A stretch of DNA of 64,000 nucleotides, taken from NCBI GenBank assembly GCA_973895155.1, contig OZ316894.1:124001-188000 (forward strand). The letters are read 5' to 3'. Position numbers and translations under genes: made by a program. Shown here piece by piece: positions 24,831 through 61,809 of the stretch. The notes under the pieces were generated by a model. That model made no database searches. It was not told where the DNA came from and saw only the letters and a list, made by a program, of their open reading frames with translations. The first letter of the stretch is position 1. Every line of letters starts with the position of its first letter. Source of the DNA: Marsupella aquatica. Taxonomy: Eukaryota > Plantae > Marchantiophyta.

Positions 24831-25735
24831 AGCCAAAATCTATTTATTACCACAAAAATCTTTACTTTTATATTTTCACATAAAACCAAGCTATTCTCCA
24901 TATACTCTAATTTTCTTACGACATTCACCCCCACTAAATCTGTGCATCCTCCGGTCTGCACCAACCTTCATTTTCTTCATCTTCCTCCAAATTATTGTCT
25001 AGCACCTCATTTCCTCCAAACCCACTCCTTTGTTTGAAAAGCTTGACTCGCTTGCCTGCATAAGGTGTACGATGCTCTGCTCCATCCAACTCTCGAAACT
25101 ATAAGTCGCATTATCATGAACCTTAGTCATCACATAAGGTCCTCCCCATCTCCTTTAAAACTTCTTAAGTGCCGAATGTTGATTATTCAAACTATTATTT
25201 GAAATCAACACCCAATCACCTTCTTGGATGGGAATTGGTCGGCGTCAATGGGTTTGGGTATAACCACCGTGCTAGCAAATAGTAAATAGGTATTCTCATA
25301 CGAGCCAATTTTGCCTCGTACAAGCAAAATTTTGTCTCGTACGAGTAAACAAGTTCTTCGTATGAGCATATCTATTTACTCGTACGAGTTTCTATTTTCT
25401 TGTATGAGTTTATGTTTTCTTGTATGAGTATTTTTTTCTTGTATGCATTTTAGTTTCTTCTCTTCACGATATGTAGCGTCCATATATGCAATAATTGTGC
25501 GGAAAATATTATGGTGGGTCCCACCATTGTACAACATCAAAGGAAATTTCTTGACGATTTCACACAAGGACTCCAATATATTGCCACGAAATATGAAGTC
25601 GAAACAAAGTCATACCATACTAGCGCCCGACGCTAGTATTGTATTATATAAAAAAACAACACTTTAAGAACTCACACTTCTGCCCGTTAGAAAAGACAAA
25701 CTACAATTGTAGTTGTTCAACGATAAAGCAACAGT

Positions 25736-26918
25736 CTACGTTCTCGTTCCCAACTGCCTATCAAGTATGTAACGGACTTCTCCCAACGTTAGAATTGGCT
25801 GGCTACATAATGTCGAATCGAGCACATCCAGTTTGAACACATTCTTGAACACCCAATACACATGTTTGCAAGGCATGTAAGGCTTCCGATAAGTATGCCG
25901 ACGGTAGAAATCCTCACAAGAGCAACATGGGAAACAACATATCTGAACCCAATAAGAGGCGACTGATATCTCATGTTCATGGGTCTGGATACAAAACTAT
26001 TTCCCCGACGCATTTCCACTCGTGATCTCTCTCTCTCCAATGACGCTCATCACTTCTTTTTCAGAGGCTTCAATTCTCTTCAAATGTGTTTGGGTAAGAT
26101 GCACTCTTTGCAAGCATTTCTTCCCGTTCCTTGAAGCGCACCTCACAGATGGGTCAGTTAGGTTGATCCTCTCCGGGAAAAGATTGACATCAATCCGTAA
26201 CGCAGAAGGCAACGGTGCTTCGATTTCATCTCCACGGCCTTCGGAGAGAATAAGTCCTTGTTCTTTCAAAAATTGAATCTCTGCTCCACAAAGATTGGTC
26301 CCTCTGGCAATTGGGAGATGTGAAGGAACATTGGGAATGTTTGAGACTCCTCTCCTTGTTGTGCTTCGGTGACAGTGGTTGTTGGGGCAAAACCATATCT
26401 GATCGTTATAAGGTTGCCCCCTAAACATTCTGCATCCTCTCACGAAAATTGCAACAACACCATCTGGATTCGGAAGGCCAACCTTCTTTACTCGATTTCG
26501 ACATTCATCACGACTACCTCCCCGTCCAAGGGTTCCGTTACACACTGGACCCGCACCCCGTTTTGAGGTCCGACGCAACTGCCAGGCATCGGGAGGTACT
26601 TCACTTTCCATTGGGGAAACTGAATGACAATATGCAGTCTTGACAGGTCTTGCAGGCGTCACTGGTGGGACAGAGGATCTTGTTGCTCGACGCGTAGGTG
26701 TGTCAATGACCACAACTTCCTCAGAAGCATCGCTTTCTGACAAATTATGGACCGCATCAATTCCACCGGCTGAAGGCATAGAAGGCATTTTCTCGAAGTC
26801 AGTGGAATGCAGGTTTCTCCTTTTCAAACCTTTTGTATTTGGTGAAGTAACAAGGATGGTATCATGCTTATGCGAGTCTTCTGCCGAGACGTTCCCAGTT
26901 GCATGTCCTTTTCATTTC
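25736..26918 (-). pseudogene. MULE transposase, C-terminal part with SWIM zinc finger
   Basis: Continues in frame from 38851 once 26919-38850 is removed. Reading through the TAG at 25997 gives YWVQICCFPCCSCEDF...MPCKHVYWV. Confidence 0.8.
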
Positions 26919-27323
26919 ATCAGCCTATTCATTAAAAGTGTATTTTCTTTTGTTCACAAATCAGTCTTGAAATGTACACTTTCATGTCCCCAAATGTACA
27001 CTTTAAGAAACCCAAATATACACTTTTTGGTCTCTAAATGTACACTTTATAGGCCAAATTATATTAGTATTATATTAATAAATAATACATATTATATCAT
27101 TTATTGATTCACAAAGAATAATAGGATAGAGATCATTATTTATGAATTCACAAAGAATAGTAGGATAGAGATCATACTTATAAAAACATTTCAGCACAAA
27201 TAAACCCTTGAATATGTGTGAACAAAATGACATAACTCCAAATAAATTATAAAATAATATACAATTATCTCCAAATTTACAATGTATTTCTTCTATCTAA
27301 GGGGCTTAACATGAGTCATATCT

Positions 27324-28360
27324 CTAAACAAAGTGCTCCTTACAATGTGTATTTGAGCACGTGCCCCTGTCTCCTTTACTATCTACCCTAGTGTCACGGT
27401 TGCAAGTCCCTTTATCTTCAGGGAGCTGAAACTTGGTGGTGTTGTTCCTAATGGCTATAATCTCCCGCAAAAAGTGTCTGGGATTTTCTCTATGCGGACC
27501 TGAATAGTCCCTTCCTACAAATGCTTTAGCAAGTGACGTGACAAGTGCATCGTCAAGTTCTGCCTCATGACGTAAACTACATATACGATGCTTCACGTTC
27601 CAAGGAATCTCATTGCTATTGAGGTCCCACACACTATGCGTAAACTGTGACTTCCAAATTTTTGTTGCACATCTCTTACTAAGTTGATCATAAGTAATTT
27701 CATTTTTTACCTTGTCTCTTTTTATGTGCAATAGAGACCACAGTGGAGAGTTAAGAAGAAGATAACATCTAATGTCACTTGCATGGGATAGTTTCTCAAG
27801 ACAAGGCCAAAGAATTGTTAGAAGAAAATTATCTCCACCACTGGCATGCGTGTAGGGCACTGGAAATAGTCCGGTCATGCTTGGGTTGGCAAATGCCTTA
27901 AGGGGGGAGTCATCCACAAGGAGGGTGTTGGTTTCATCATATAGATTTCCAAATCCACTCCATACCACCCGAAAATCCTTCAGTAGCACATTTGTCTTTC
28001 CGTTTGTAATGTCACGCCTTTGAATGCCTGTGTCAAAGGCTTCCACCTATGTGAATACAAACTTAAGTTTCAACCACTCCTCAGCAGTGAACATCATGTT
28101 CAGCATTTTCACTGTTCGATGTACCCCAGCAATGTCCAAATTGCAACGTCAAATCGGTCAAAAACCAACTTTAGAAACTCATGGAGCCCTGGCCTTTCTG
28201 TGTACATGCGACTAATTCCATTTTTTCTATCCCAATGCACTCCACCTGGGGTCACAACATTTCTGGATTTGCCCTTGCTTTGGAATTCAACTGAATCCCA
28301 AAGTATTTTGTTAAGATCCAAAATCAGCAATTTGCGCTTGATGGAACAAGGTCTTGGTTC
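27324..28360 (-). pseudogene. FCP1/NIF-like HAD phosphatase (cargo), frameshifted
   Basis: KLLILDLNKILW..RPGLHEFLKLVFDRFDVAIWT..LLKDFRVVW..YDETNTLLVDDSPLKAFANP. Confidence 0.8.
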
Positions 28361-28611
28361 TGCAAGTGCAACAAATACCAATCTTAGAGAAAAAACCACA
28401 TTTGAAGTTTGGATAGAGATCATCTCTATCAATCCAACACAAGTGGCCAACCACAAAGAAAATATATCTGCATACTGATCATATTCATTGAGAAACCGTA
28501 AAGAGGAGATGGATATTGATACTGATGCTCTAATTGTTAAACTTGAAGTATAATTATACAGACTATATTATATCAAATTGATAAGGTCACATCGCTCAAT
28601 CTAGACCTTGG

Positions 28612-31600
28612 CTAACAATGGGATCCATATTCATCAATCAAGATATCATCACCGAGCTCTTGTTGGATCTCATAATTGACATCGGAGGTACTCTCCTCTA
28701 TCCAATAAGGTGCAGACCAAACCGGAGTTATCAATCCCAATTCTCCACTTCTATAAGTTGGATCTTTCTTGTGCTTTTTGTACGAGTCATTGTTCAAAAT
28801 TGATTGAGCAGCATCCAACGCAACTTCAGTTCCTACATCGGGTCCACTTTTCCACACATAACATCGACAATCATATTCAAGTGACTTATATCCAGTTGAT
28901 CCTACTCTCTTCCCTTTCTTTTTTGAGAGTGGAAGGATAACGGGACTTCTTGATTGTGATCGAACAAACACCAATTTGTCATCAGAAGCGGAAAAGAGTG
29001 TATCGGGACAAATTGAAGCACCTGCCTGGTTGTCAGCAGTCGTGGATGCACTTGCTTCATTCACAGGAATGTCAGCTATTTGGATGGGCTGTGGTCTCAA
29101 TCCCAATGTGTCGAGTTCATTGGACTCACCATGCCTCTCCGCACCTTGATTGAGAAGGTTGTTTGAAGAAAGTTTTTCAAAAGTATCAACTTCCATCTCT
29201 TGTCCAGGCACTTGTGGATGGAGACCATCTCTATCCAAGTTATCATCATATTGGCCCTCGTTGGGGCCCATGGGGGCAACATCTGTAATTGGTGAACTGC
29301 AAGGTGCAGATCCAACAATCATATCATCTTCCACAAGGTCAATATTTTCACCCTCGCCAACTTGGTCATCCAAATTCTTCACGTATGCCCCCTCCAATGG
29401 CCCATTGTCTTTGACTGATTGGTCAGCTCCATCTTCTTGATCACCATCTGATTCATCCTCAATAGCAACAGCGGCAGAAGAGGGTTCCCAATGTCTAGAA
29501 CTTCCACCGACATAGCGATCATAACGATCTTTGATGGTGGGAACCTTCTCACAAAGGTACAAAGCGTATGCTTCCACAAAATATCTCTCATGTTGAGAGT
29601 CACAATAAACAAAACATTCACGTTGAGAAAAAAGGGATGCCTTCATCACTTGACCGCTAGAGAAAAAGTCAAGAATCAAATCCCCCGGCTCGGACAGTGT
29701 TTGGATGATCTTTTGGATCATCCGTGTGGGTTTGGCGTGAGGATTCACCCACCCACCCCGAGCGCCGACAGTCTCAAATCGAGGTGCCATGTGCAGAAGG
29801 ATTGCCGCCTCTTCTGGGGTCATCATATTTTTTAGATCTTCATGCAATGACTCCTCGTCCGCGTCCTTGGCCTTTCCCTTTCCCTTGACCTTCTCAACCA
29901 CGAAATCAGTATCCTTTTCACCGTACACCCATTTTGGCTTCATTTGGTTGGGCTTGAACACTTCATCCCAGCTGACGTTCTCCTCGCGAGAAATTCCGGC
30001 AAAGATAACTTCTTCTATTCCTCCCTTCCAACATGAGTCCTGAGGGTGAGGTTGATCATCTCGGTAATAACTCCCATACTCAATGTGAATACTCAGAGTT
30101 TTTGAATGTCCTAATTTACGAAGAGCGCTTAGGACATTCAGTACAAGATAACCCGGATGGACAGTTATCATCACAACAATGGTAGGATTCCGTGGTAGCT
30201 CTACTATATATTGGAAGAGGACCAAAATCTCTACTTCAGTCCACTCTTTTTGTTGAAGTCCGCTGAAATCAACAATTGCAAGAGGGCATGTTGGAGATTG
30301 TTCTTCCAACGACTCCGGATCCACAGTCTTCATTAGGTTGTTACTAAAAAATATGACCCACGGCTGGGTCCGAGAACTTGTCCCACCGCCAAACTTTTGA
30401 CAGTAAATATCATCTAGACGCATCACCAATATCATTGGCAATATCTCACTCTCCTTTGTATGATTCAATTTCAACAAATTTGTCAACCATACATCGCCAG
30501 CTGCTCTTCGGCACCTGTTCAACTCCAAATCTGGACCCAATAATGGGAGGACTTCAATCACTTTAGCCCAATCAGTATCTGCTGGAAAGTGTTTTGGATC
30601 CTTCTTGAAGTAGTAATCTCCAATAAGAGACTTCAATTTGATCAATATCTTCACCTCCTTTGCAAACTCCTCCATCGCTGGAACATCTGACTTATTAGTC
30701 GGATCTTTCTTCAATAAAATCTGACCCGACTTCACCTTGTTCAAAATTCTGGTCAAATCTCTATTTGAGATTTCACCATCAAAACAACGAAACATGGCGA
30801 CGGTTATCGCCTTTTTGGACCTTTTGTTTCCCTGTGTACCAGCTCCATCAGGAAGATCTCCATCAATCCACATCTGGCACACTAACCGCCATATTTCGAA
30901 AAGATCATTCTCGGCAAAAAGTAACCAGTATACATTTTTCAAGTCTTTTCTCCCCATGGTCATCCTTGCCAATGCCAGATAATCCTACAGTCAAAAATTC
31001 GGGAGAATGTTGTAAGTTATCTACAATCAATGAGATTTGACAACACACAATCGCTTGCTTGGACAGAGACCATCTCTGTCCAAGCCATAACCAAAAGTAG
31101 AATGAAGTAAAATCTACAGAATGGAAGGTCTCACTCTTGGACAGAGACCATCTCCATCCAAGTCATAACCCAAAATATATTGAGCAAAAATCAACGTAAT
31201 TGAAGGTCACACTCTTGGACAAAGACCATCTCTGTCCAAACAAGAACTCACCTGAAATTTCTGATTGTCTTGGGCGTTTGATTTGTTGTCCCCGTGGTTT
31301 GGCTTTCTTGGTCTTCCAGTTTCAAGGAATTGTTTTCTTGCATGAACAATTGTATCTTTGAAGCACGATTGAAACACCATCGAAGAATTGATGGCATTTG
31401 ATCTCATTGAGTGCTCAACCAGTATAGCCGATGGCGTAAGGTCTAACAATAATCTAGCCTTCCTATATTTTAACTTTTTTGCCAAAACTGTGAGCTTGGC
31501 ATCAGTTTCGGCCCACTCAATAACCCATTTGGCCGCCCTAGCAAAATGTTGCCCACTGACGGCCAGGAAAACAATCTCGCCTTTCTTCACTCCTGCAAGA

Positions 31601-32711
31601 AGGTCTTTGCGGTCGTTCTCCGTGCTGTTAAAATGAAGCAGCTTTCTAAGCTTCGGATTGTAAGGAAGAAGGTCCGCAACGTGAGGTTCATGTCCAGGGT
31701 TTTTCACCATGGATTCGGCTATGTGCTTCACATGGGCACTGTTGAGCATCCTGTAACATAACCTTGCCGGAGCAGGATAAATTTTCTCCACTGGAATAGA
31801 AAATATTTCATTTATCCCAAAAGTATAGTACTGCTCTATTCTTTGGAGAACATCATTCCCTTCTAAAACCTTCTTCTCCTTCGGGGCATCAAGTTTGTCT
31901 CCCTCATCCTCTGGGAGCATCTGTACGTCCGTTGGAGTTGACCGCGCAATAGTCTTGTCAGTTTTCTATTTCTTCTTTACTGGCTTCTTCTCGGGTTCCT
32001 TCGGCAGTGTCTCAGTTTTCTCGCGCTCCTTCCTCTCTCTTTGTCTTCGCTTCCCTACCACTTGTTTGGAGGCTGTCCCGGCCGTTGTTCCTGCAGTCCC
32101 GGTTGTTGTCTCCTGAGATATTTTTCTAGGCTTCGGAACTTCTTTGTTAACAACTACTGGAGGCTTGTTCACCACTACTGGTGCAACATTTGTAGGCTTG
32201 GTCACCACTACTGGTGCAACACTTGTAGGCTTGGGTAATGATTCTATCCACTTTTCGCATTATCCATTGCAAACTCCTCTGCAAATGCAATTTGCTTGTC
32301 AAGGAAAACACCTGATTCCAAAGATAGGAATCCTGCCTTGTCAAGCAAATTATTTAAAATCCATGTCACCGGAAATGTATAATTCCCTTGGTGTTTATGC
32401 ATATTCAGCTTCACATATTGAAACCCATACATGATGTCAAGTGGAAGAATCCCCTTCACTCCAGCAGTCACCTTTTGAGTTGAATACGACTTAGGGAAAA
32501 AGCCCATTGCCAACACGCCAAGTTCTCCAGCTGTAGACCACTCAACATTGAATTCTGAAGAATACACCTTTGATGGTAGATGTAGTTTAACCCATCGTAT
32601 CCTTTCATGGAGCTCAAGAATGACGGAAACAAACCCTCTTCCTTCAATTCCAATGAAGACTACAAGTCCGAGTACAAGAGTCTCCTGGTCTGCGGTTTGA
32701 CCTTTATGCAC
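28612..32711 (-). pseudogene. ParB/Srx-like domain plus N4C/N6A DNA methyltransferase-like protein (cargo of the TIR element), spliced
   Basis: ParB-like: IPVEKIYPAP..RMLNSAHVKHIAESM..LAVSGQH. GT-AG intron 30985-31251 joins KFQ|DYLAL in frame. MTase-like: HAKPTRMIQKIIQTLSEPGDLILDFFSSG. In-frame TAG at 31966; the 5' end is degraded. Confidence 0.7.
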
Positions 32712-32928
32712 AAAATGGGATCCCGTCTCGTTGACGTGCTAAGGAAATCAAAATCAACTCTGGAGAACTCAAGGCCCCAACGAAAACCTTCTCTGCTCTG
32801 CTCCAACAAGACTCCCTCGGAGCAATCTGCGTCTGAAATCTATGGTTTCAATGCATTTAGATAGCTCCCTGCAACAGTCCCATCTAGGCATATTAGTTTG
32901 GAAATCTTACTTTTGTAATTGACAAAAA

Positions 32929-34940
32929 TTGGACAGGGATCATCTCTATCCTCTACTTGGACAGGGATCATCTCTGTCCAATTTGTAATAAAGATCATCT
33001 CTGTTCGATGAGAGGATACTGACGATCATTATTACAAATTGGACAGGGATCATCTCTATCCTCTACTTGGACAGGGATCATCTCTATCCAATTCCTAATA
33101 AAGGTCCTCAGCATCGTCTGATAGGACATCCTCTGTCGTCAGTTTGGAAATAAATGATATCTATGCAATTGGACAGGGATGATCTCCATCCATTTGGATA
33201 GAGATCATCTCTGTCCAATTCCTAATAAAGATCACTATCTTCTATTTGGACTCTACTTGGACAGGGATCATCTCTGTCCACCACACAAATATTCAACTTG
33301 TTACTGGGATACTCACTTGGATTGAGCGATTGAAAGGCTCTGGAATCCTCGAGGGCCGTCTCTACCACGTCCTCAATGGATGAGAGGTCTGTCTCCTCTG
33401 TTGGCTCACTGACGAGACACACTGGAATAGGTCTGGATGGCTCCATCGTGTGACACGTGGCCTTATGGACACGTGGAGGATTGCAGAGTGTTAGATCTAG
33501 GGCAATTAACGTGGCGGCTATGGGGATAAACTTTAGTGCGGAGGCAGAGTGAAGGAGTGCGGAGGTGTCGGAGCGAAGGAGATTGGAAGCGAATGAGGCG
33601 GAGGAGCGAGCGAAGGAGCGCAAGAGCAGGAGTGGAGAAGAGGAGGAGCGGACGGAGGAGGGAGGAGAGCGAGCGAGGAGCGAGGAGGGAATGAAGAATG
33701 AGGCCCAAGTGGGACCTCCTGCCTCCTTTACCCCCCCCGAGGCGAGGCAAGGCACATTGAACACGTGGGAGGCCGAGGCGAGTGGAAAACCCTAAATGCA
33801 CGGCTGCCTTAAAGTGCGCCGGCCGACCTAATCCACTTGCCCGACCTAATCCACTCGCCGTTGCTTAAGGCTAATCACGCATCGCCTTATCCATAAGGGC
33901 GATCTTCAACAACTGGTATAAGATACTTGGGGTTGTCCGGCTGGTCCTCATTTGGTATTTTCATTTCTAGATTTTTGTTCAGTTCCTCAACCAGGTCCGT
34001 TCATTACGGAGCCCCATTGAGACACTCTTGTTTTCCAGACAGAACATCTAGTTTTAATTTCTTCCACACCCCTGAAGCATTTAGTTTACCAGGTTACTGA
34101 TAACTACCCCTTCAACACAGTATTTTAATCCTTGGTTTGACAACATAAACTAAATTGAGTTTTGGGTTCAAGAATCATTTCCATTATAGGTAACTTTAAA
34201 CCTAATTATAGAATTGTAGCATATTCCATTGATATCCGCAAATTTAGGAATTACTATATCTAAGTTAAGGTTGAAGTGAAAAAATCCCAGCCCAACTCAC
34301 GATTGGGATCATCTCAATCCAACCGTTCTTTGCTCAAACATTTAATTAGTGTGTAGAGTCAATTATCCGTACAGGGGTCATCCCTGTTTGCTATCTGGAT
34401 AGGGATCATCTCTATCTGCTGTTTGGATAGGGATGATCCCTGTCCACCGTAGAGGACTGTAGAGGACCATATGAACTATAGCACTTTATTGGATCCTCTA
34501 CAGTTTGGATCCTCTGGTTGGATAATGATCCGTATTCGCCGTTTGGATGGGAATGATCCCTGTCCGCCATTTGGATAGGGATGATCCCTCTCCACCGTTT
34601 GGATAGGGATGGTCCTTGTCCGCCGTTTTGATAGGGATGATCCCTGTCTACCCTTTCAATAGGGATCCGTGTCCGTGGTCGTTCTCCGGATGATCCCTGT
34701 CCGCCGTTTGAGGTATTTGCTTGATTGGACCCCAATATGAAAAGTTTCCTTGAATCATCCCTGTCCGTTGTTTGGACAGGGAATAGACCCGATCCACCAT
34801 GTGGACAAGGATCAGGCGTGTCCGCCTTTTGGACAGTGACAGACACTATCCGCCGTTTAGGCAGGGATGATCCTTGTTCGCCGTTTGGACACTGACAGAC
34901 CCTATCCGTCGTTTGGACAGGGATCATCCCTATCCGACGT
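32929..34940. repeat. Clusters of the palindromic motif TGGAYAGRGATSATCYCTRTCCA
   Basis: Many full or partial copies at 32929-33280 and 34367-34940; further copies at 28410, 31059, 31137, 31215 and 35513. Confidence 0.9.
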
Positions 34941-34967
34941 CTTGGAGTTGTTTTCAATACAAATCCA

Positions 34968-35543
34968 ATGGAAAGGTGTCACAACATTTTACTTGGTGAA
35001 TCACGGATCAGTGTGAGGGTAACTGATGTCATTCATGGGAGTAGGGTTTTACCTTACAAACACAGTGGGGCTGAAACAATTGACGAGGCAAAAGACTCAT
35101 GGGTTCTCTGGGACGTGGCAGATGTCCGAAGTAGAAAGAGTTTCTCAAAGAAGGATGCGGGTGATGATATCAACATAGAGCGGAGTTTTGTTGTGGAGTC
35201 TCCCTCAGCTGAAATTTCTAAAACTAATTGTGACTATTTCCAACGGTCAAATTGGATGTCAGAGTTGGTCGAACTATACATCGGTTCAGATCGAACCAAT
35301 AGGGTTGCCACAGGGACCATCATTGTGCCTCAAGAAACGGCGATGGTTGACGATGAAATCCTTGGTGAGGACCATGTAGGGATTGCTGTGAAAGATGTGG
35401 TGGAATCACAATACTTTCCCAATTTCGGTGGCGGATTGATTCAACAAAACTACTTGCAAACGGGAAATTTTTGTCGGACATTTTGGTTGAAGGTTCAGAG
35501 AGGATGGAGACGGTGGATAGGGATGATCTCTATCCAAATGTAA
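34968..35543 (+). CDS. Tnp1/En-Spm-like domain(s), probably the frameshifted N-terminus of the transposase
   Basis: HNILLGESRISVRVTDV..LPY..TIDEAKDSWVLW parallels the CACTA domain at 17998-18279. A second partial copy reads VATGTI..LGEDHVGIAVKDV. Confidence 0.5.
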   Translation: MERCHNILLGESRISVRVTDVIHGSRVLPYKHSGAETIDEAKDSWVLWDVADVRSRKSFSKKDAGDDINIERSFVVESPSAEISKTNCDYFQRSNWMSELVELYIGSDRTNRVATGTIIVPQETAMVDDEILGEDHVGIAVKDVVESQYFPNFGGGLIQQNYLQTGNFCRTFWLKVQRGWRRWIGMISIQM

Positions 35544-38245: not shown

Positions 38246-38517
38246 ACTTAGTTGTTAGAAGCTATAATAATTAAATAGATAGTTACTAGTTTTTATGTAA
38301 GATAGTCACTCATTCAAACATAGTAACTTACGTACTAGTTATTTACTATTCTAATAGTTTTAATGTGAGACCATGCCATTGAGTGTTAGTTATACTATCT
38401 CCTCATTTTCTAAACTTTTGATCGTTATGAATATGAATGTTTGCTTTTTTGCATAATTAAAAATATTTTTCTATTCATTCCTTTCTTTTAAATGATTATA
38501 ATAAGAGTTGGTAGGAA

Positions 38518-38820
38518 AATGTACACTTTTTAGGCCAAATGTACACTTTGTTGCACTCAAAGTTACACTTTCTAGACCAAATGCACTTAAATGTACACTT
38601 TTTAAGCCAAATGTATGTTTCTTTCACTCAAATGTACACTTTCTAAGCCAAATGTACTCAAATGTACATTTTTAAAGCCAAATGTACCTATTTTGATGTT
38701 CAAATATACACTTTTCGTTGCCCAAATGTACACTCTTTAGGCCAATTGTACACTTTTCTATCCCCAAATGTACACTTTTCCAAGCCCAAAAGTACACTTT
38801 TCATTGCCCAAATGTACAAA
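38518..38820. repeat. Subterminal AAATGTACACTTT repeat array
   Basis: More than ten degenerate copies here and about four at 26970-27050. Confidence 0.88.
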
Positions 38821-38850
38821 TAATAATACACTTTTAATGAATAGGCTGAT

Positions 38851-41616
38851 TTTCACCGATCGAGTTACAACATCACCATTCAATGGAACGCTTCTTTCCA
38901 AATCAAACTCAGCAGCGTTCGACAGGAGGAGATTGGTGGCTTCCTCAAAGAGACGCGGTGACCCCGCCAGGTCCGCCGATCTGAAGGCAAGCTCAAAAAT
39001 AGTTGGGCCAGTTCCTCTGCTCAATCCCCTTTTGTATGCAGTATAAGCAGCAATTTGAGCAACCGCTCTATTTTGGTCCGTTTTGCATCCTTCAAACAGA
39101 CCAACCTTTTTTTTCTGTTGCCATGCTTTCATTCCAGCATGCCTAGATTCCGAACCAGTACAATTAGGAATCATCCCAGCCTCTTCGGCACTCTTGCTCT
39201 GAAACATTGCACGCAAGGGTTTAGTACATGTAAGAAATTGCACACAAAAGTGGCAACACAATGGAAATAACAGTAGCGCCAGACGCTAATAAACTGATGA
39301 TGATATTTCCATGTAAAGAACCGTTTAACACAGAATAAAGGTAGTCCTTACATCACTCATAGTCCAAACGGATTATTAGCGCTCGATGCTACTATTGCGG
39401 ATAAGGAACTCTTCTATCTCACACATGCTTCACTAGCGCCGAGCGCTATTAATGGGAACATGCATCCTAGAGCAGTGTATAACTCACCAGTCTTATGAAG
39501 TTCCCCCATTGTCTCCATCGGACAACCCACCAAGACAGCCACCCTTGCAGCATCCGAAGTTTGCCTGAGTGACAATTGCCAGACCTCCACCAGTCATCGA
39601 TTTCCCTCGAGATTCGAAATGCTTTCAAGAAAGTTGGCGCGTTCCAAAGACGATCCCACATCTCCTTGTGCTCTCCGTGCTTTCCATCTTTTACACCTTC
39701 TCGGGAATGATGATGAAAAGATTGGAAAAAATGAAAGGCATCTGATCTTTCTCGCTCTGGGTCAGGTACACCGTCAAAGAACACGTTTCGAACAGCATTC
39801 CAACCAGCCTGAGCATTGTCCGCCATGAATCCCCGAATTGTAACATCCTGTAAACCATTTTCATCGACAACCTCTAACATCAAACGCCAGGCTCTCTCCA
39901 GAGATTTTGCATCTTCGGCCTTTAGCTCACAAGTGAATATGGTGCAAAGTGCCCGGTAATGATGATCATATACATGGGCACTGAAAGTAAGCCAATCTGC
40001 CGTGCTTCGATGCATCACGTCAAAACTTACCCATGAACCCTCTAACGACCCACCAGGTTTCATTCTTTGGAGCAGGTCCAGACCACTCCCGTCACCTTTT
40101 ACGTCATTTTAAAGATATGAGCACTCTCGTCCCGACAGCCTTGACCAGGGAGCAAGAACCTATGAAGAAAAGGCAGTCGGATACACTTTTGCATCCTCAC
40201 AAGAAATTCCAGTTCCCCTTTCCCCTTCTGATCTTGACGGACACTCCTTAACACGGATGCAAACTTTTGAGGAGATGCGACGACCATCAGGGACTCCCAG
40301 ATTTCCTTCTCTTCTTCAAGAGAGATTTCTTCAACAGAGGCCTCGCAAAATGTATTCGTCAGTGTCTCAGTCGCAGAGTTTTTAATCCCTGTTGGGGATG
40401 CCATGGGGTTTGCAGTGAATCCCTTCTCCAGATGAGACCTTGCAACCTTTTCTGCCTCCCTCGAAAAGACCCATCGACTGGGATGATTGTGAAATCCCAT
40501 ATGAACAGCTAGTCGCGACATGTGGGCCAAAGACTTAACGTCAACTTTTGCAGATGGATACATGTAGAACATTAGAGCAGGGCAGGCCTCAACGCACATT
40601 GGAGGTTCGGAGCAATGGTGACAAACAACTCCACCTTCGAAGATCAATTCCCCAACTTGGAATGGGCCCGAAAGTTTTGGGGTTCTTGCCCACATCTCAT
40701 TATTTCGAAACTTGTTGTCTTTCCACCACGGACAAGCATTATTTCGACACTGCAGCGATCCCGTACACTGGACTTTCCCGAAATCCCACATTTTCTTCGG
40801 AAGAACATTTGAAGACGTTTTCACAATCCGAGTCCAATAATAACAATCCTTACCACGATCCATATCTTTCAAACGTTCACCTTTTGCGTTCACACAGTCT
40901 ACCGGGGGTAACTCAAAAACCACATTCCCATTGTAAGATGTGGGAAGACTAGGCACTACGTGATGAACAAAATCACTCCCCCTTATAAATTGAGACAATT
41001 CACTATGACCTTTGGATTTCAAGATTGTATCCATTGCACTCTGCTGGTACACAGTCAAAGGCACAATCATTTCTCGATCCGCATTAGACTCCTTTTTAAC
41101 CTCGGATGGGTAAACTGGAATCTTCTCTCCGAGAGTAGTTGTCGCTTGCTTATCATCTCCAGAACTTTCCGAGAGTTTGATGACATCGAGTTCAGCCGCT
41201 GTGGGAGGACGAGTATAGGAGGCCCCAGAATCTCTCAAAACAAAAACCTCATATTCTTTTTGAGCCTCCAGAGTCCAATATCTTTGACCATGAACAACAT
41301 CGTAGAAAACTGGAGTCTCCTCCAAACAAACCGACACTAACGAGATCGCTAAAATAGACTCCTTGGCGACATCAAATCTCACTCCCAAATATTCCTCTGA
41401 AACACGCTTTGATTAAGATGATTTGAGGACGGGAATTGTGATTACATCCCGAGTGTCCTTCCTCATGACAACGATATTTTGAGCCATGGCTTCAAAAGAG
41501 GGATATGCATTTTCCCCCACGCAAAATGAAATATGTTTATCATGAGATTCGAGTACGAGAAGTAAACGTTCCATTCTCATTATAGAGTCGTTATAGATTT
41601 GGACGCACTCCATCAA
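38851..41616 (-). pseudogene. MULE transposase, N-terminal part: GCM/WRKY-like zinc domain plus DDE core
   Basis: CTGSLQCRNNAC..CHHC..C..GFHNHP (GCM-like). D in FDVMH, D in MADNAQAGWNAVRNVF, DAFH at the CxxH position, E in GSESRH. Frameshift near 40100; intron at about 39210-39487 (acceptor not pinned down). Confidence 0.8.
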
Positions 41617-42268
41617 TGACGTTTTGTCGTCTTACCAACGGCAGGATTTGGGTTCATAGTTACTAGCGCCTGGCGCTACCTCTAAGTGTAAAACACTCTT
41701 GGGTGAGGACTACGAATGCCAATAATAATAGCGCCTGGCGCTACCTCTGGGTGCAAACATTCTTGGGTGAGGAGTACGAAGGCAATAAATAATAGCGCCT
41801 GGCGCTACCTATTTCAATGGACTTGAAAACATTCAATGGAAGGATAAGTACGATAACGCGATACAGTACGAGTCATTAAGTTGGCACGCTTGAAGATCTC
41901 CACTGGATCTTCGCGAATCCGATCCGCCCGGGTCCAAATGTGTCAGAGAGGAAGCGTCCACAAAAGTTATATCAGAGGGTCCTCTTCGAAGTGGGTACCC
42001 AGGACCAAGTGCGAACTCTCCTTATATCTAGTCGTTCTCCTCCAATGTCCTCATTGTCAAGCCATTCTTCACTGAGTCACAGTTGTGGCTCATCTTTCGG
42101 GCGCGTGGTTCCCGTTCTCATTTTTGGGCCCAGTTGTTCTTTTTGGCTTTCGTGCGCGTTCTTGTTCTCCTTCTCGTCCTCGTTTCTCATTCTCGTCCTA
42201 GTTCACGCTGTTGTCCTCCTTCACGTTCTTGTTCGCGCTTCTTGTTCTCGTCCTCGTCCTCACTTTCA

Positions 42269-42696
42269 ATGGCACCTCCACGAGGGAAGGCAAAGGAGGA
42301 GGCACTTGTCCCGAGCGACACCGACCGGGAGACCCCCGCATCAAATAGCTTACCGCCTCGGCCGAATGCCGAGAGGATGACGGTTCCAATCTCGAAGAAG
42401 GGGAAACTCATCTCAAAGATGAAGAATGCCCCAACTATGGGCCACAGCGAAGGATCCAGTCGGCCGAATGTGAGCGGCCCGACTTTTGTTCCCGCTAGGG
42501 ATATCGCCCCTGCTTCAGTCGGCCGTCCAAGAGCCGACACTATCTGCACGGGAGTCTCCTATCTTCTTCATCCACTGAGAGTGATCATTCTTCGAGCGGG
42601 GACTCATCACCGAGCAGGCGAGGATTTACGTGGTATGGATTGAGCGACTCGAATGATGACTCCGATGCATACAAGCCAAGTTGGTGGGAAGACTGA
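42269..42696 (+). other. Possible small, disordered third ORF of the MULE element (frameshifted)
   Basis: MAPPRGKAKEEAL... lies between the two divergent genes; no domain recognised. Confidence 0.25.
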
Positions 42697-44483
42697 TTTC
42701 CCGTTGTCAGAGCGTATCATTCGAGTTCTGGAGAGACTTGGAGGATCCATCAAGGTTGATAGGATCTATTTCCACTCGGTTTTTTCCGATAGAAAACCCA
42801 TACCGTTCCTTCCTCGTATGCCGGATTTCTAGTGTACTGTAACATTTTGTATATGAACGGCATAGCCGTTCGTTTTTACCTCGGTGTCAATGCTTTTGAA
42901 TTCAGAAGACCAAGCTTTAATTTTGGGTTCTACTCCCGTGTTTGCATTGTATTTCTGAATGCAAACCTGATCTATTTCTTTGAAATGGCCGTAAACACTC
43001 GTTTGCTGTCAATGTTTTTACTAGCGTTCGGCACTATTATGAGAAACAAAGTGTCCGTAACACTGTCGTGACATGTCTTATCTCTAAAGTGTTTTTGATA
43101 GCGTTGGGCGCTATTAATGAAAGGAATCACAAGTCAGACCCGTCCGGAGTTATTTTTACTTTTATTTCAACAAATTTTGTTCAATTGATGTGCATTTTAA
43201 TAGCGCCAGGCGCTATTGTAATTCATTGGAATATTCGTTGAATGAATGGGTTCATGTGGTCATGTTTATTGTCATTGGACTCCGATTTCATCATTTATTT
43301 GAATACTAGCGCCGAGCGCTACTAAAGTTGGCTTGTCGACACCTGCACAAAATTGGAAAATTTATAGACAATTGTGTTCATAGTACTGCCCGTAGCTACA
43401 TTAAGATGGTTTTTCATATACATTTGAAAGTATGTTGTATAATAGCGCCTGGCGCTATCCACAACTACCGACACTGATGTGGTTCCAACGGTCACTTTCC
43501 AACGGTAATATTATAGTAGATTGAGGTTCACGGAACCCTTTTTGCTTTTGTCTGGGATGAAAGTCCAATCGGAGAATGCCATCTGTACTTGGGACCGTTG
43601 TAATCGAATGGCTGGTTCTATTGTATCGGTGTCTTAATACAAGGTGGAGATCGCTCGTTTGGGATAATTTAGTCCGTCTAGCGCTCAGACCTCGGACTGT
43701 ACGAGTTTGTCAAGTGCATATGTGCGTCCTTTATTGGTCCCGTACATTTTGAGATGTGATCGTCACAAGAACTGCACGGCGCATACGACAGTGCTGGGTG
43801 GTCGAGTTGCTCTCCACGACAACTTTTGGCTGGGTGATACGAGAATGGGGGAGGCTGATGGTGGTCATTCTGAGTCCTCTCAGTCTTCGTTCGCTGGTTC
43901 AGTATACACCCGTCGCGTCACTCGATCGACTGCGTCCCTGTCGACTTCCGAAGCTGAATCTGCACAGCCCTTCCCGAGGTCGAGGAGAGGGAGAATGGAC
44001 CCTAAGGACGTCTCCATGGGTGAAGTCAGTGACATAGGCTTATCGATGGACGAGGTAATATCAAAGCACGCATTGTCGTTCGGGAAGGATTTTCGAGGAT
44101 TCGATAAGGAGCCACCTCAAATTCCTCTTTGTAGATTGCTCCCCATGGAGGTTGTTTGAACCTTACAGAAAGAAAGTGCATCGATCGAGAAGTTGAAAGA
44201 ATCATTCCGTGTCACCGGGTACAACTCACGCATTGGGATGCCTTTCTACGTTCAGCCTGCAAATGCCAATGGGGTTTCTCATATATGCACCACCGAGATC
44301 CGGGACTCTTGGGATCCAATCTGGGTCACAGAGAATGACAAGTTTGAGGAAGAGTGTGATGCGGACCCAGCGTTCCATATTCTAAAAGATAAAATGTTTT
44401 GTGTGTTTGACGGAAATCATCGATTGTACTCGTGGTCAATCGTCACGAGGGAGAATCCGGACAACTTGAAGTATCATCCTCGT

Positions 44484-46941
44484 TGTGACGCCAATGACAT
44501 GGTCCTTATTTTGTAATCTGATTAAGTAGGTTGCTGTATGCAAGGAGTAGCTATTGATATTACATAACAATTAGCAAGATGGCAAGAATAAGGGCAATCA
44601 TGGCGTTAAGAGTAGGGAAATAAAAACTATGTCGCGGGTGGTCGATGACCATATCTCTTTCAATATGTCACCAAATCCGGATCTGTAAAGAGCATTGGAA
44701 AGATCTGGTCAAGGCGAGTAAAATCGATATAAAACACTCAGGAAACGGAGGTGTATTAAGAGAGATACGGCCTGATTAGTGTGACGGGTTAACTTATGGC
44801 CGGAATTAGTGGATTCGGCTTCAGTTTCGGGTTAAATCAAGCTCGACCACGGCTTAGCTCAGGTAAGCACGGCTTCAGCTTAGCTCAGGTGAGCACGGCT
44901 TCAGCTTAGCTCAGGTGATCACGGCTTCAGCTTAGCTCAGGTAAGCACGGCTTCAGCTTAGCTTAGGTCAGCACAGCTTCAGCTTAGGCTTAACCTAGGT
45001 TCGGATTAGATTGAACTCGGGTTAGCCTAAACTCGGGCTCAGGTTAGCATAGGTAAGTTCGGGTTCGGGCTCAGCTTAGGCTAGGTTAGCGGATAGCGGG
45101 TAGCGGCCTAACCCGAGACCACGGGTTAGCTCTACTCGGGTTAGATAGGATAGCTAGGTTAGCCGAACTCGGGTTAGCTATGTAACTCGGGTTAGCGCAG
45201 CAGTGAGTACCCCCTCTCGGTTGCGGGGGCATAACTCTCTGTGTATTTGACCAAATCGGCTATAATTGACCTCGTTGGAAAGAGGAGCTCAAGCCGCTTC
45301 CAACGCTGCTATCCACGCAGCAAATGGTTGAATACAGAAATCGGGAGAGGAGGCGTAAGCTCGCGAAAACCATGGAGGAGGGCCAAATCCGAAGTACATA
45401 GCCAATTCGAGATAGAAATAAAGCTGCGAGTTAGGGTTCAGTAGTTAGAGATAGTGGCGGCTCTGTTAGGGCTGGGATGGGGCTCCAGCAGCGTAGTACC
45501 CAGCCATTTGGGCTCAGTATGAGAGTATATAGAGCAGCCCCCCGGTAGAGATGGGGGGGGGACTTCAGTTGTGTGATCTCACTTAGACTGAGCAGCAGGG
45601 AGGAGCTCTGTGCAAGCAAGGCTGGACTTGGACGCTGCGTGTTGGGGGAGAGCTTGGTTGTGCTATTACTCAGGGAGTAATCAGCCAAGCTTCACAGCAA
45701 CGGGTTGCTAGGTTTGCGAGCTGGATTGTGGCTCTTTCTAGTGAGTAGCACAACTGGGTTCTTTTCCCCCGATACAGAGCCTTGGTGATAGGTGATGTAT
45801 TGGTGATTGTAAACTGTGGGGAGGATGTCAATTTGATTTGTGGTGAGCACATTAGGGAGGCTGAGACACTGATTGAGGGGCAGCAGTAGGAGCATTTACA
45901 GTTCAGTCTGGCAAGGCTACGTGATCCATGGGGAGTCCCGGCCTTTGTCTGGTGGAGAGCACTAAGGGATCTATGGCCAGAGCAGAGCTTGCAGGGCAAG
46001 CGTGAGGCCGGGCCTCATTGCAGTCTGGGGTAGATCGCCGTTAGGCCTGGTACCAGCTTTGAAGTCGAGTCAACTATGTATGCGTAACTTGACGTTCTGA
46101 ATTGGAGGGTGTGAGATCTGTATGTGCCCCCAAGAATGAAGTGCAGTGAAGGAGGTTGAGTTCAGGATTGAGTTTGCAAGGCAAGTACGGGATTGGTTTG
46201 AGTCCAATATGCCGTCGCAATCTGGAGTGAGCCGGGCTCAGGTTCAGGATTGAGCTTGCATGGCAAGCATGGGGCTTGCGGGGCAAGCACGCTGCAATCT
46301 GGAGTAGACAGCCTTCGGGCCTATTGTTCGGATCAAGTGTTCTCAGTGAACTATTGTGCACATCGTTGAATCTAATTGAGTTTTCCTCTCAGGCCTCATT
46401 TCTCTCATGGATGTGTGTGTGTGTGAGGCAATCTAAGTGTATGATGGGACTAGCAGCGCCACTGAGAGGTGTACAGGGTGCATTGAAGCGGGCTGGGTGA
46501 GGACTGTCATAGCTCTGATTGCTGAGAGTGGAATGGCAGAGTGGTGGGGCAATGGCTTAGAAGTCCCTAAGCCGGGAATCAGTCAAGAGTCACTGGTTTA
46601 TGGGTATATTCCGGCGGCGGAATAGAAACATACCTATGACAGTAAGCATACGTATAGACCTATGCGCACCGTAGCGCTAGGCCCTGTGTGTACGGGCCCG
46701 ATATGAAGACTCCTTCTCACCAGAACTATCATGAGCGCGGATCTGATTCCCAACCTTGGTTCTTAGGGATTGAGCTTGGGTGATGTGTGACGGAGTCTTG
46801 TTATGATATTCTGGTGTTAAGGGCATAAATTGGTGTTTACCGGCCTTCACAGCATCCCTTCGTGATCCTCAGGTACAAGGAGATGGTTTTGGCACCCATA
46901 GTGACGTCTTTGGTGTTAAGACCCATGTCAATCGCGTGACA
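44484..46941. mobile_element. Solo LTR (2458 bp)
   Basis: TGTGACGCCAATGACATGG...CCATGTCAATCGCGTGACA. TSD CTCGT at 44479-44483 and 46942-46946. Removal restores KYHPR|VICVIF. Confidence 0.92.
44848..44990. repeat. 26-bp tandem repeat inside the solo LTR
   Basis: GCACGGCTTCAGCTTAGCTCAGGTRA, about five copies, followed by degenerate CTCGGGTTAG repeats. Confidence 0.85.
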
Positions 46942-49900
46942 CTCGTGTGATTTGCGTCATTTTCAATGGTGACAGAGGTTCACTAGTTGAGCTCGAGGCG
47001 GCAATGCACACCGTGAACCAGTAAGTTCTATTCGTTAACTGTTGTTACCCCTGTCATTCATTTTGGACCAAACATGCTTTGCGAAAGTGTTCATTCCCCA
47101 ATTTTTGCTAGCGCCCGGCGCTACTAATTCCTTTTCATTGCATCCAGGCTTGGACAAGCAGTCGTCGAGCCTTCCTGGATTCTTGACGCGGACAGAATTT
47201 CCCAAATTCTGTCATGTGATCTTGATCACTATAAGCCACTCATCGACAGCGCGAACATGGCAAAGTTTGAGGCGATCCAAAAGAAGACGAGAAAGGGGTC
47301 TTGGTTTACACATAAAATGCCACAGGATGCTCTCATCTACATTCTGTGTGTGGACAAAATCAAGTCTTACTCAAATCAATTTAAGTCTGATATGGCTTTA
47401 GCCAAAGCTCAAGGGGCTTCTTGGTCAGAAGAGGAGACCATAAAGAGGCATGAGGCAATGATGAAGGAGGCGACCAAAGATTGGTCGATCAAAGTGACAA
47501 AGATCACCCCTTTACTTCATCCGGATTTTGGAGATTATTTGGGAACCTGTGCTGAGATGTATCCCGTAACTGAGAAGAACAAACGGGAGAAGAAGCCAGA
47601 CACAGTTGTATGCACAATGGATCGAGCCAGGTTGTTTACTGCTGTTTCATACCTGGATCCAAAATTGAGGTGCACCTTTCTAGTAGCCCACTGCACTCCC
47701 AAGATTCGGAAACAGTTTTTCCATCCTGCAAGTGTCAACGACGAGCCTGTGAAGCAGTGGTGCCATACATGGCATACTTGGAATTTTGTGGAGGGAATTG
47801 CAACTGGAATGCTTCACACTTCCTTCAAACAGATTTCTGACCGGATGCCAGCTGACCGTCTCACAAAGTCTGGGTGTGAGTCAATGGAGGCCATGCTTAA
47901 GATCATTCTCGATGAATTCAAAAACTTTGGGGATCTTGTCAAGGCAAAATTCTTCAACAACTTGTGGCCTTCCAAATATGCGGACAAGGAAGATTACACA
48001 GAGCGGAACCGGAAGAGAGCCAAACGATATCTATACCGGTTTTACATGTGGATGGAGCTTAGATCTCCTGACACTCTATGGGCATACCCGGCTGCATTTC
48101 AGAAATGGGTGTCTATCGAAGAGGGAGACGCTCTTGCCGACCTTTATTCGATGTACCCAGCGGAGGGAAAGTTTCCACCACGTTCATTGTCGGAGTGGGA
48201 GAGACTTCACTGTCCGTGGTACCTCAACACAGACAAATGGGATTTACCGTTCAACGAAGCTGAGAAGGATGCCTTCATGAAGTTGCAGAAGTCCCAGATC
48301 CCTGCCAACTATGTGTCTGCAATGAAGCAAGGTCTCCAGTCTGATGTTGACGAATCTGCATCTGAGTTACAGAAGAATTGTGAGTCTCTTGTCATGCACG
48401 TTGACCGAAGCCGTAAGCCAAGAGCAAAGGCGAAGAATGAGTCAGCTGCACCAAGTAACTCCACAAGGTCCTTCAAGAAAAGTGAGTAGTCTAAGCGCTT
48501 TTTGGTTACTTGTTGGCGCTGCTTATGCAGGAGTTTCATTAGGAAATTCCTTTGATTAATAGCGCCTGGCGCTAGTCTGAAAGGTTGGACTCATTCAAGT
48601 TTCTGTGTCTAACAGGAGGTCGAAAGTCTGACACGGAGGTCCCGGCTGCCGAAGGGAAGAATGATGCAACTCCTCAGGCATCGGAGGCAAACACTGGAGC
48701 TCAAGAAACTCCGGATCAAGGGACCCCGGATGGTGCTGGCAAATCCATTGTCCCTCTTGACGCAACTAGCACGAAGAAAAAGAAAAAGAGAGGCGCCGGT
48801 GAGGACAGAGTAGCATCATCTACTCGAGACGTTATTTCCTGTGGACTCCAGAGAGATGTCAGGAATTTTAAGCAAAGGTGTTCTAGACACTGTTTTGTGG
48901 AGTCCAATTTAAATGAATTTTATGATTCGGTATTTAACAAGGGGATGAAGCCCATGTGGGTTACTAAAGTTGAGGCCTGGGGAAAGGAATTGGTAAAGTC
49001 AGGAGACAGAGAGAAGGGAGTAATGCATGGCGGAAAAGAGAGGGGCTTTGGTGTGGATGCTGGTTTCATCTACATTCCCACTGGATTAAAACCAACACTT
49101 CTTGATCGGAAGGTTCCCAAGTGGAACCTTTAGGATTACACTATTCCCAGCTCTTTCTTCCGAGCCATGGAGCCGTTCCTTGCAGACGATGGCCTACTTG
49201 CAATTTTACACAGAGGAGACTATGATCAGGTATCTGAAGTGATTGCGGCTTGCCAGGATTCTAAGTGTTTCCAGTGTATTTCAACCCACCATGTGGTCAT
49301 GACTACACCAATGTATAGGCCCCGATCTGATACTCAGGTAACAATTCCTATGGCACATACCAGCGCCCGACGCTACTATCAGCATTTGCAATATCTACAA
49401 TTCACTTATCTTTCGTAAGGATGAATGGTTGACTAGCGCCAAGCGCTAATATATGTGTCTGTTTTCTTATACTGCCTTCATTGGGAAACTGTGTTGCAGA
49501 TATTCACACTTACTCTTAATATATTTTGCCGCATTTCGACAAAGGGAAGGGTCCCGAAAGACCCCAAGTTCCGGCCACTATCGAATGAAGAAGACCCTTC
49601 CATCACTAACATTATTGGGTTTTCGTTGCCGCGACATGACCCGACTCCTGAGCTCCAATTTGCAGGAAATTCACGATTGCCTGTGGGTTTCATGCAAACT
49701 ATTTTGGAATTGGTGACTCTTCCTAGAGATATTGTTATGGACTGGACAGTAGGTTCCGGTAGTACGTTTGTGGCTGGAGATTATTCTGGTCGCTTTGTTG
49801 TTGGGCTGGAAAATCGGCCAGAGTTTGTTGATACTTCCGATAGGGTCTTCCTTGATCTTTTACAGAACAAAGAAGTGGTTGCACCAACTCCTCCTAAGAA

Positions 49901-50794
49901 GATTCCTGGAAGTAAGAAGCAGGACAGGCTCCGTGCTATTCTAAATTTTGATTCGAAAGACGAGGATGAGGGTGGCAATGCTTCTCAGCAACCTAAGATG
50001 ATGAGGTGTCGAAGAATGTGGTGGACCTTGGATCTGGAGATGAGGACAGTGAAGAGTCAGAAGAGTCATTTTCTTTAGCTTTCTTTCTCTCATTGTATAC
50101 TTTTTTCCAAAGAACTCTACTCCCTTTTGTCTAGAAAATTCGCCCGATTTCCCGACTTCGACTAAAGAACTCCAGTTCAAATTCTCAGGTTAGAGTGGAA
50201 TCTTTGGAGGTGTTTTCAACTTCGAAGGAACGTCTCTAGGAACGTTGTACAGACCCCGGAGAAGCCATTTGTTCTCCCCTCTTATGCTGAAAAGGCGGCA
50301 CGACGGGCAGATTCAGTCAGGACGCTTACTTGGGAGAGTAAGGGTCTTAGACTCAGGAGAGGCTCAGATAGAAAGTTTGTGCAGAATCACTTCGTAGATG
50401 ATATTGCAAAATCCAAGTATGTGGACGACGAAGCAGAGTCCACTGATAGATCAGAAAGTAGCGGTTCTGAATCGGGCTCAGAGTTGAGTGGTGGTTGTGG
50501 ATCTGGTCTTTAGTTTTCCTTGTTTTATTTACCCGTTTATGGAGAACGACGACACTCAATAAGAACGTCGTGACGTGTCGGATTAGAGTAGCGCCCGACG
50601 CTATTACTGTAGCCGGTAGTTCAAAGAGGTTTTTATTTGGTTGTTTTCCTTATAGCGCCCGACGCTAGTATAAATGTACTCAATGGCCGCTTCACGTCCA
50701 ATATATGTGACAATATTTTCATACCCTTCGGTGTCTTTTTTTGGGTGCACATTTGCTGGTATGAGTTTTGCTGTTTGCTGTTTGCTGTTTGCTA

Positions 50795-61600: not shown

Positions 61601-61809
61601 ATCCTATCAAGGGATTATTGCGCTACAGCAGGAGCTTGCGTCCCTGACGGCCAGCTTCAAGGCCGACCTACGGGAGAAGGACAAGATGTTCGATCAGACT
61701 TACGCCAAGATGAACCAGATGGAGTCTGTCATCATTGCGGAGCTTGACAAGGAGTTAAGAGCAACCCGGGAGGAGAGAGCTGCGTTTAAGAAGGAGTTGG
61801 AGGAAGCCG
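58644..61809 (+). mobile_element. Start of another ORF-containing LTR (TGTGATG...) with an accessory protein pseudogene at 59148-61809
   Basis: LLEFVGSWES..VYGKDFYLTPQVIAEVFGLP..IDFLRVTMHCNWPRAEI, followed by a coiled coil with in-frame stops. Confidence 0.6.

Follow-up and report, generated by a model that had tools for sequence, protein, structure and literature searches.

We describe a short spaced palindrome, TAGCGC-N3-GCGCTA, that is dispersed through the non-coding DNA of a Mutator-like element (MULE) in 64,000 bp of the liverwort Marsupella aquatica (contig OZ316894.1, positions 124,001 to 188,000; hereafter the window, whose numbering is used throughout). All 18 palindromes lie within the element's own DNA (25256–50811). 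They are candidate binding sites for an accessory protein, ParB-like by motif order and fused to a methylase fold, that the element encodes beside its transposase. The reading in which this protein binds them as a dimer, covering family copies in trans, has in our judgement slightly better than even chances.

Copy number and placement of the palindrome

The palindrome occurs in 10 exact copies in the 64-kb window; shuffled sequences held a mean of 0.00, and 0 of 100 reached 10. Allowing up to two mismatches gave 20 matches (shuffle mean 0.65, maximum 3). Eighteen are the sites considered here; the remaining two are poor and one-armed, at 46672 in a solo long terminal repeat (LTR) and at 55721 outside the element. 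An unbiased tally of spaced palindromes across the element's own DNA likewise put TAGCGC-N3 first, with 10 copies. An earlier reading of the sequence (the original prediction) had listed 18 coordinates, all of which are real (10 exact), although its stated total was 'about 19'. The element, its genes and its insertions are arranged as follows.

25247–25255 (plus): left target-site duplication (TSD), 9 bp, AATGGGTTT
25256–50811: Mutator-like DNA transposon with two nested insertions, 11.2 kb without them; its terminal inverted repeats (TIRs) are short, imperfect and G-terminal
25274–25428: left subterminal repeats, CTCGTACGAG-like plus AGCAAAYAG, distinct from the palindrome; partner copies at 50765–50793
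25621–25635: palindrome copy 1, 3' of the transposase
25741–26920 (minus): transposase exon 2, distal part, with a SWIM-like CxC..CxH
26921–38848: nested DUF7869-transposase element, CAGCC..GGCTG ends, AT duplication
28410–35536: the nested element's palindrome TGGAYAGRGATSATCYCTRTCCA, 20 copies (≤3 mismatches), partly in 28-bp tandem arrays
28612–31965 (minus): nested accessory gene, with a ParB-like exon, an intron (30985–31251) holding three sites, and a methylase exon
38849–39198 (minus): transposase exon 2, proximal part
39199–39487 (minus): transposase intron, palindromes at 39274, 39377 and 39434; same position in seven of seven protein relatives and in the related locus L001
39488–41490 (minus): transposase exon 1, motifs FDVMH, MADNA and SDAFH
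41491–42277: spacer between the divergent genes, palindromes at 41664, 41729 and 41793 (64–65 bp local tandem duplication)
42278–42830 (plus): frameshifted open reading frame (ORF), possible third gene, palindrome-free
42831–43519: AT-rich intron or spacer, palindromes at 43022, 43099, 43201, 43307 and 43443
43845–50513 (plus): accessory gene, with a ParB/Srx-like N-terminus (DGNHR), a helical middle and a beta-class amino-methylase fold without DPPY
44484–46941: solo LTR (TG..CA, 5-bp duplication CTCGT) inside the ParB-like exon
47021–47147 (plus): accessory intron 1, palindrome at 47109
48482–48615 (plus): accessory intron 2, palindrome at 48560
49338–49499 (plus): accessory intron 3, palindromes at 49361 and 49434
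50589–50667: two palindromes (50589 and 50653) 3' of the accessory gene
50812–50820 (plus): right target-site duplication, 9 bp

The placement of the sites agrees with what had been predicted. All three accessory introns (one, one and two copies) and the transposase intron (three copies) carry the palindrome, none of the 18 falls in modelled coding DNA, and the nested element is free of it: TAGCGYY half-sites number 35 in the 11,165 bp of MULE DNA and 0 in the 11,928 bp of the nested element. With coding DNA at 66–73% of the element's own sequence, exon avoidance reaches p of about 5e-9 to 4e-11 per site, or 6e-4 to 9e-5 with seven clusters as the unit, values that overstate the case because a stop-bearing fixed 15-mer fits exons poorly anyway. 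More telling is the presence of the site in all eight clearly non-coding blocks, including introns of 127–162 bp.

Five sites, at 43022–43443, lie in DNA that may be intronic or intergenic; at least six sites therefore stand outside any intron, or 11 if 42831–43519 is intergenic. Two uncertain blocks (42278–42830 and 43520–43844) hold no palindrome. Both are GC-richer and kept in other copies of the element, and they possibly form a two-exon third accessory gene with a Cys/His-rich part. Sites follow one another at about 0.1–2 kb along the element. Three of the 18 lie 144–365 bp from an element end and 15 are far from the ends; distances to splice sites take no fixed value, and helical phasing of the spacings was not significant (Rayleigh p 0.15–0.37).

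A symmetrised profile extended the site to TAN-TAGCGYY-N-RRCGCTA-NTA, with two symmetric CpGs. The TAGCG arm is unbroken in 33 of 36 half-sites, the three deviations being at 39387, 43033 and 49361. The window copies show 17 mismatches in all; C>T and G>A changes account for 16 of them, and 14 affect the inner CC/GG. A CCNGG centre was considered as a methylase target and rejected: the centre is the most variable part of the site and is shorter in L001.

The element's classification rests on sequence features. We call it Mutator-like because the transposase carries two acidic motifs (FDVMH and MADNA), SDAFH and a SWIM-like CxC..CxH finger, and because of the TSD; at 9 bp, AATGGGTTT falls inside the 8–11 bp described for Mutator elements (PMC6446971). 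The TIRs begin with G and form short, imperfect GGG..CCGTG(C/A)TAGCAAA ends. The third acidic residue was not located in the transposase, and Pfam scans of it gave no match, to MULE or to any other family.

Conservation in family copies and a relative

Contigs from six public runs show that the element belongs to a multi-copy family. The window copy is dead, with nested insertions, stops and frameshifts; in these contigs, neither its stop at 49131 nor its frameshift at 49994 occurs in the other family copies. The other copies match the consensus at full depth at 39386, 39387, 43033 and 49361, for the last three in every run covering the position (at least these four restorations, among the differences listed, 40 of 650 and 40 of 183). 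Because the consensus base is present elsewhere, the three outer-arm defects in the window are decay of a dead copy.

Seven protein relatives of the transposase (53–70%) stop aligning at the same intron position. No relatives were found in viral contigs or prokaryote genomes, and 47 candidate stretches in metagenomes yielded one locus with DNA, L001 (60% protein identity). Its orthologous transposase intron (L001:1079–1395, 317 nt) scores −30 against the window intron, compared with −49 ± 13 for shuffles, and −35 compared with −40 ± 11 when the motifs are masked, whereas the flanking exons do align. Within this unalignable intron stand three copies of ATTGC-TAGCGC-N2-GCGCTA-GCAAT, with a spacer one base shorter than the N3 of the window. 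They lie 33, 117 and 207 nt from the donor site, against 40, 97 and 200 nt in the window. The L001 intron has five TAGCGC in its 317 nt, a count reached by 0 of 20,000 shuffles, and the 1,761 nt of exons have none. Indirect support for conservation of the site comes from translations of the motif, found only twice in 38,267 aa of fetched proteins, both times in C-terminal tails of intron read-through (P0008, 64%; P0020, 41%).

The half-site is thus kept over long distances, with a spacer and flanks that shift coherently within a family, as a protein-binding site does. The part of the original interpretation that made the sites sequence-constrained and family-bound thus stands, given their persistence in L001 and absence from the nested element.

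Two rearrangements touch the sites. Contigs in two runs join two palindrome copies, from 41743 to 43201, skipping 1,457 bp (one side spans only 21 nt), which reflects either a deletion between sites or a mapping artefact. L001:1172–1231 forms a perfect inverted repeat of 60 bp with one of the palindrome copies at its centre, which may mean that template switching shapes the sites or may be an assembly effect.

The accessory protein and its nested counterpart

The transposase gene (41490 to 25741, minus) and the accessory gene (plus) stand head to head. Gene models were built from homology and splice signals; every modelled intron is bounded by GT and AG and leaves the reading frame undisturbed. 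Once spliced, the accessory gene reads through 1,148 codons, interrupted by two stops; its start codon (probable 43845) was placed from Riccia homologues, and it ends at about 50513. A predicted protein, P0060, combines part of this transposase family's N-terminal region with part of the accessory protein, which hints at adjoining genes in other places as well, or at a gene-model fusion.

Full HMMER searches with the middle exon returned 111 relatives, and a word-index search against longer proteins none; the Atlas gave no usable match for this exon. The liverwort Riccia sorocarpa was the named homologue in six of the ten clusters looked up, and its protein KAL3677308.1 (1,207 aa) is an intact annotated homologue with the whole architecture. 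The N-terminal part shows, by eye, the ParB-like motif order IPLCRL..LK.SF..DGNHR, and a helical insert of about 450 aa separates it from the methylase part. The latter matches PF01555 above the cut-off (E 2.1e-7) and, in the PDB, DpnA, M.PvuII and MboIIA; hhalign gave 93%, and all these matches are on the C-terminal part that binds S-adenosylmethionine.

The catalytic motif IV, (D/S/N)PP(Y/F), is replaced by YIPTG in the window. We assigned the position by eye against ADLLITDPPY of a phage fusion protein, L002; Riccia homologues read ADCLYLDLPTG or similar there, with D-L/M-P-T/S/I-G in four of the six that bear the methylase, one differing and one lacking the region. The methylase family is probably catalytically dead or altered, and the degenerate motif IV weakens the published idea of self-methylation.

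The main argument for the accessory protein as reader comes from the nested element. It interrupts transposase exon 2, where the frame is restored with only the 2-bp AT duplication, and it encodes a DUF7869 transposase, the remnant of a NIF phosphatase and a ParB-like/N6_N4_Mtase gene. This gene, for which the liverwort Calypogeia fissa provides the named homologue and the Atlas a weak ParB_N lead, again stands head to head with the transposase. Its frame is intact-looking, open over 1,028 codons, and lacks the methylase motif (D/S/N)PP(Y/F). The duplication of Sola1 elements is 4 bp, compared with 2 bp here. The two accessory proteins have no detectable similarity (phmmer E 0.17), and each element has its own palindrome: half-sites of the nested one number 33 within the nested element and 0 elsewhere in the window, with no cross-presence of the MULE motif. 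The nested ends carry 12 copies of AAATGTACAC, distinct from TGGAYAGRGATSATCYCTRTCCA, so that in both elements alike the end repeats differ from the internal palindrome. With the ends accounted for by another motif, the internal site is left for a second protein. One design, consisting of terminal repeats, an internal palindrome and a ParB-like/methylase gene, thus recurs with two unrelated transposases, and this points to the accessory protein as the reader. Copies of the nested palindrome at 29215 and 35514 lie inside reading frames (DRDGLHP and DRDDLYP), so the nested site tolerates a coding context. The 28-bp tandem arrays of nested palindromes resemble the red-algal arrangement described below.

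The MULE is surrounded by retrotransposon integrase sequence. To its left, 24040–24850 holds two short repeat arrays (CTCG..GAGAT and GGTAAATTCTAGAAATTACC-type palindromes) in retrotransposon non-coding DNA. Further off, 1344–4835 and 11288–14793 are direct repeats about 9.94 kb apart with 96–98% identity, probably the LTRs of a recent retrotransposon, and 61150–61808 and 63342–64000 form a 659-bp inverted duplication (87%) of coiled-coil coding sequence from retroelement accessory ORFs.

Candidate readers of the site and known systems

We favour the accessory protein as reader. A dimer, which the palindromic symmetry fits, would contact two TAGCG half-sites and tolerate a centre of 4–5 bp. 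With sites every 0.1–2 kb, the protein could cover the element from end to end, either loading and spreading as ParB does or binding cooperatively, and the coat would act in trans on any family copy. The methylase domain is probably no enzyme now and may serve as a scaffold or base-reading module. By analogy with VANC in VANDAL elements, the purpose would most likely be self-recognition that shields the element from host silencing by 5-methylcytosine (5mC), or licensing of expression or transposition. A role in segregation is not plausible.

Several results weigh against this reading. Pfam scans gave no significant ParB match for the accessory protein, nor did PDB profile searches, and a profile compared with one phage ParB_N scored 13.4, within the 8.5–16.6 of shuffles. 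No helix-turn-helix (HTH) was identified in the protein; in bacteria, parS is read by the HTH and not by the ParB domain. Exon avoidance is partly trivial, as one of the three frames on each strand of the site meets a stop and coding sequence accommodates no 15-mer easily. One nested site, at 29215, lies in coding DNA. The motif frequency was measured within the 64-kb window, against shuffles. The core is common to families only 40–64% identical in protein, unlike the fast-diverging VANC motifs. Finally, L001 is too short to show an accessory gene, and the co-occurrence of site and accessory gene rests on two elements in one window. AlphaFold models were of low confidence (predicted local distance difference test scores of 37.4 and 37.8), and Foldseek yielded nothing at E ≤ 0.001, METTL14 and Alba appearing only as weak rows. 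No ParA partner was identified, a double-motif pattern had 0 matches in viral contigs and 0 in prokaryote genomes, tblastn of plasmids with P0046 gave no match, and Pfam scans showed no similarity to VANC.

The strongest competitor, though we hold it unlikely, is that the palindromes are bound by the transposase itself and serve inside the element as regulatory or enhancer sites, in synapsis or in self-activation. The original prediction had dismissed transposase sites because the palindromes are internal, which is too strong: three of 18 are near an end, and a MULE transposase can itself regulate sequence-specifically. As described, the AtMu1 transposase activates the family it belongs to by binding to a motif, and TnpA is transposase-derived (10.64898/2026.08.24.746577). 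In L001 the motif follows the transposase lineage, the transposase is the only gene seen there, and the arm GCTAGCAAT resembles the window TIR GCTAGCAAAT. However, AtMu1 binding is reported to peak at TIRs and termini (10.64898/2026.08.24.746577), where the present element carries another repeat, and 15 of the 18 sites are far from the ends. The internal-palindrome design is, moreover, common to two unrelated transposases, and the factor they have in common is the type of accessory gene.

A host DNA-binding protein (a transcription factor, insulator or methyl-sensitive reader) recruited by the element is a poorer candidate still. The persistence of the core across divergent families is what a slowly changing host factor would produce, and the site holds two symmetric CpGs. 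In all three L001 copies the spacer is 2 instead of 3 and the flanks are ATTGC instead of TAN, a change that better fits a co-evolving partner encoded by the element, and the nested element uses an unrelated palindrome in the same host.

We consider it very unlikely that the palindromes act without a protein partner, as RNA hairpins (in splicing or as a small-RNA source) or as sequences perfecting themselves by template switching. Each copy can form a stem of 6–7 bp, intron 2 folds better than shuffles (z = −3.25) and one L001 copy sits within the 60-bp inverted repeat; three of the four intron stretches, however, fold no better than shuffles (z 0.05, −0.91 and −1.25). Rfam gave 0 matches, sequence is conserved and not pairing alone, splice-site distances vary and at least six copies are outside any intron. 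That the copies are footprints of a miniature inverted-repeat transposable element (MITE) or other small insert, the case named in advance as fatal to the original prediction, is highly improbable: they are dispersed, non-coding and palindromic, but their flanks are unrelated (mean best identity 37%; only the tandem pair 41729/41793 reaches 82%), no TSD-like duplication was found at any of the 18 sites, and they are confined to one element and recur at matching positions in the relative's intron.

Extending the accessory-protein reading, one may picture land-plant transposons of unrelated superfamilies that each adopted a prokaryote-derived ParB clamp joined in one protein to a dead methylase, and a private parS-like palindrome in their introns; the clamp would load there, slide along the element, mark it as self and block host methylation. 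We regard this extension as doubtful, if possible. If true, a eukaryote would have an epigenetic system built on a nucleotide-gated sliding clamp, in which each family's site and reader evolve together (spacer of 3 versus 2).

Bacterial ParB/parS, KorB/OB and Noc/NBS systems use palindromic sites of 15–21 bp in many copies; in ParB/parS partition an HTH reads the palindrome, the clamp is gated by CTP and ParA is the partner. The phage fusion L002 (ParB_N followed by a beta-class N6_N4_Mtase) has the same domain order as the accessory protein. Unlike the bacterial ParB systems, the present one has a eukaryotic, intron-containing gene and a helical insert, has lost DPPY, and shows no identified HTH or ParA. 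In eukaryotes, ParB-HTH methylase fusions of chlorophytes and inactive methylases of DIRS elements were described by Iyer et al., and the N4-methylcytosine (4mC) enzymes described for Marchantia and rotifers are host genes of other architectures.

A close likeness is to the giant Plavaka/Mutator elements of red algae, as described in a preprint (bioRxiv 10.1101/2025.02.11.637652). These DNA transposons have the accessory genes PAG2 and PAG3 and encode a PF01555 methylase; the product of PAG3 is ParB-like, and inverted repeats arrayed next to that gene were proposed as sites of self-binding. The cassette moves between superfamilies. In that description ParB is fused to a 2-oxoglutarate (2OG) oxygenase and the methylase to SET, whereas here the ParB-like and methylase parts form one protein; and the red-algal repeats are tandem arrays by PAG3, whereas here single sites extend across every intron and spacer of a land-plant MULE. 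In Ectocarpus, Sola1-1_Ec32 is described as carrying a 1,104-aa ParB-like plus N4C/N6A methylase gene opposite the Sola1 transposase (PMC12477816). That account treats the methylase as active and, in the description compared, names no target site; here there is a candidate site and a degenerate catalytic motif. The literature searched, in which subscription journals were thinly covered and preprint supplements lay outside, contained no account of this motif or of a ParB-methylase transposon from a bryophyte; target repeats or land-plant cases could be listed in Supplemental Table 6 of the red-alga preprint.

The Spm TnpA protein and the AtMu1 transposase are likewise element-encoded proteins on clustered, family-specific motifs, which are described at termini (10.64898/2026.08.24.746577), whereas the present sites are mainly internal. 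Anti-silencing by VANC in Arabidopsis works through binding of the protein to its motif, with hypomethylation as the effect. VANC proteins bind motifs in introns and spacers (PMC5735166, PMC10398659), and VANDAL elements are, by these accounts, MULEs with degenerate TIRs whose accessory-protein motif lies in introns, spacers and terminal non-coding DNA. The likeness to VANC targets drawn in the original prediction holds for non-coding placement (18 of 18) but not for tandem, fast-diverging targets: only 41664–41793 is tandem, and the core is conserved. The VANC21 motif, YAGTATTAY, is reported as a short non-palindrome in fast-evolving tandem repeats; the present site is a spaced palindrome, mostly single, with a conserved core.

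Such accessory genes and the idea of self-binding are already published, for red and brown algae. New here are two site/protein pairs at one locus and, in a land-plant element, a candidate site that is defined, evolving and dispersed through introns. Together with a natural spacer variant and the intact homologue KAL3677308.1, these open the self-binding idea to direct tests in a plant group amenable to genetics, where the locus itself supplies the specificity controls. Should the idea hold true, a second, independent sequence-specific system of anti-silencing or self-recognition would stand alongside VANC, and it might serve as a tool for changing the epigenome at chosen targets.

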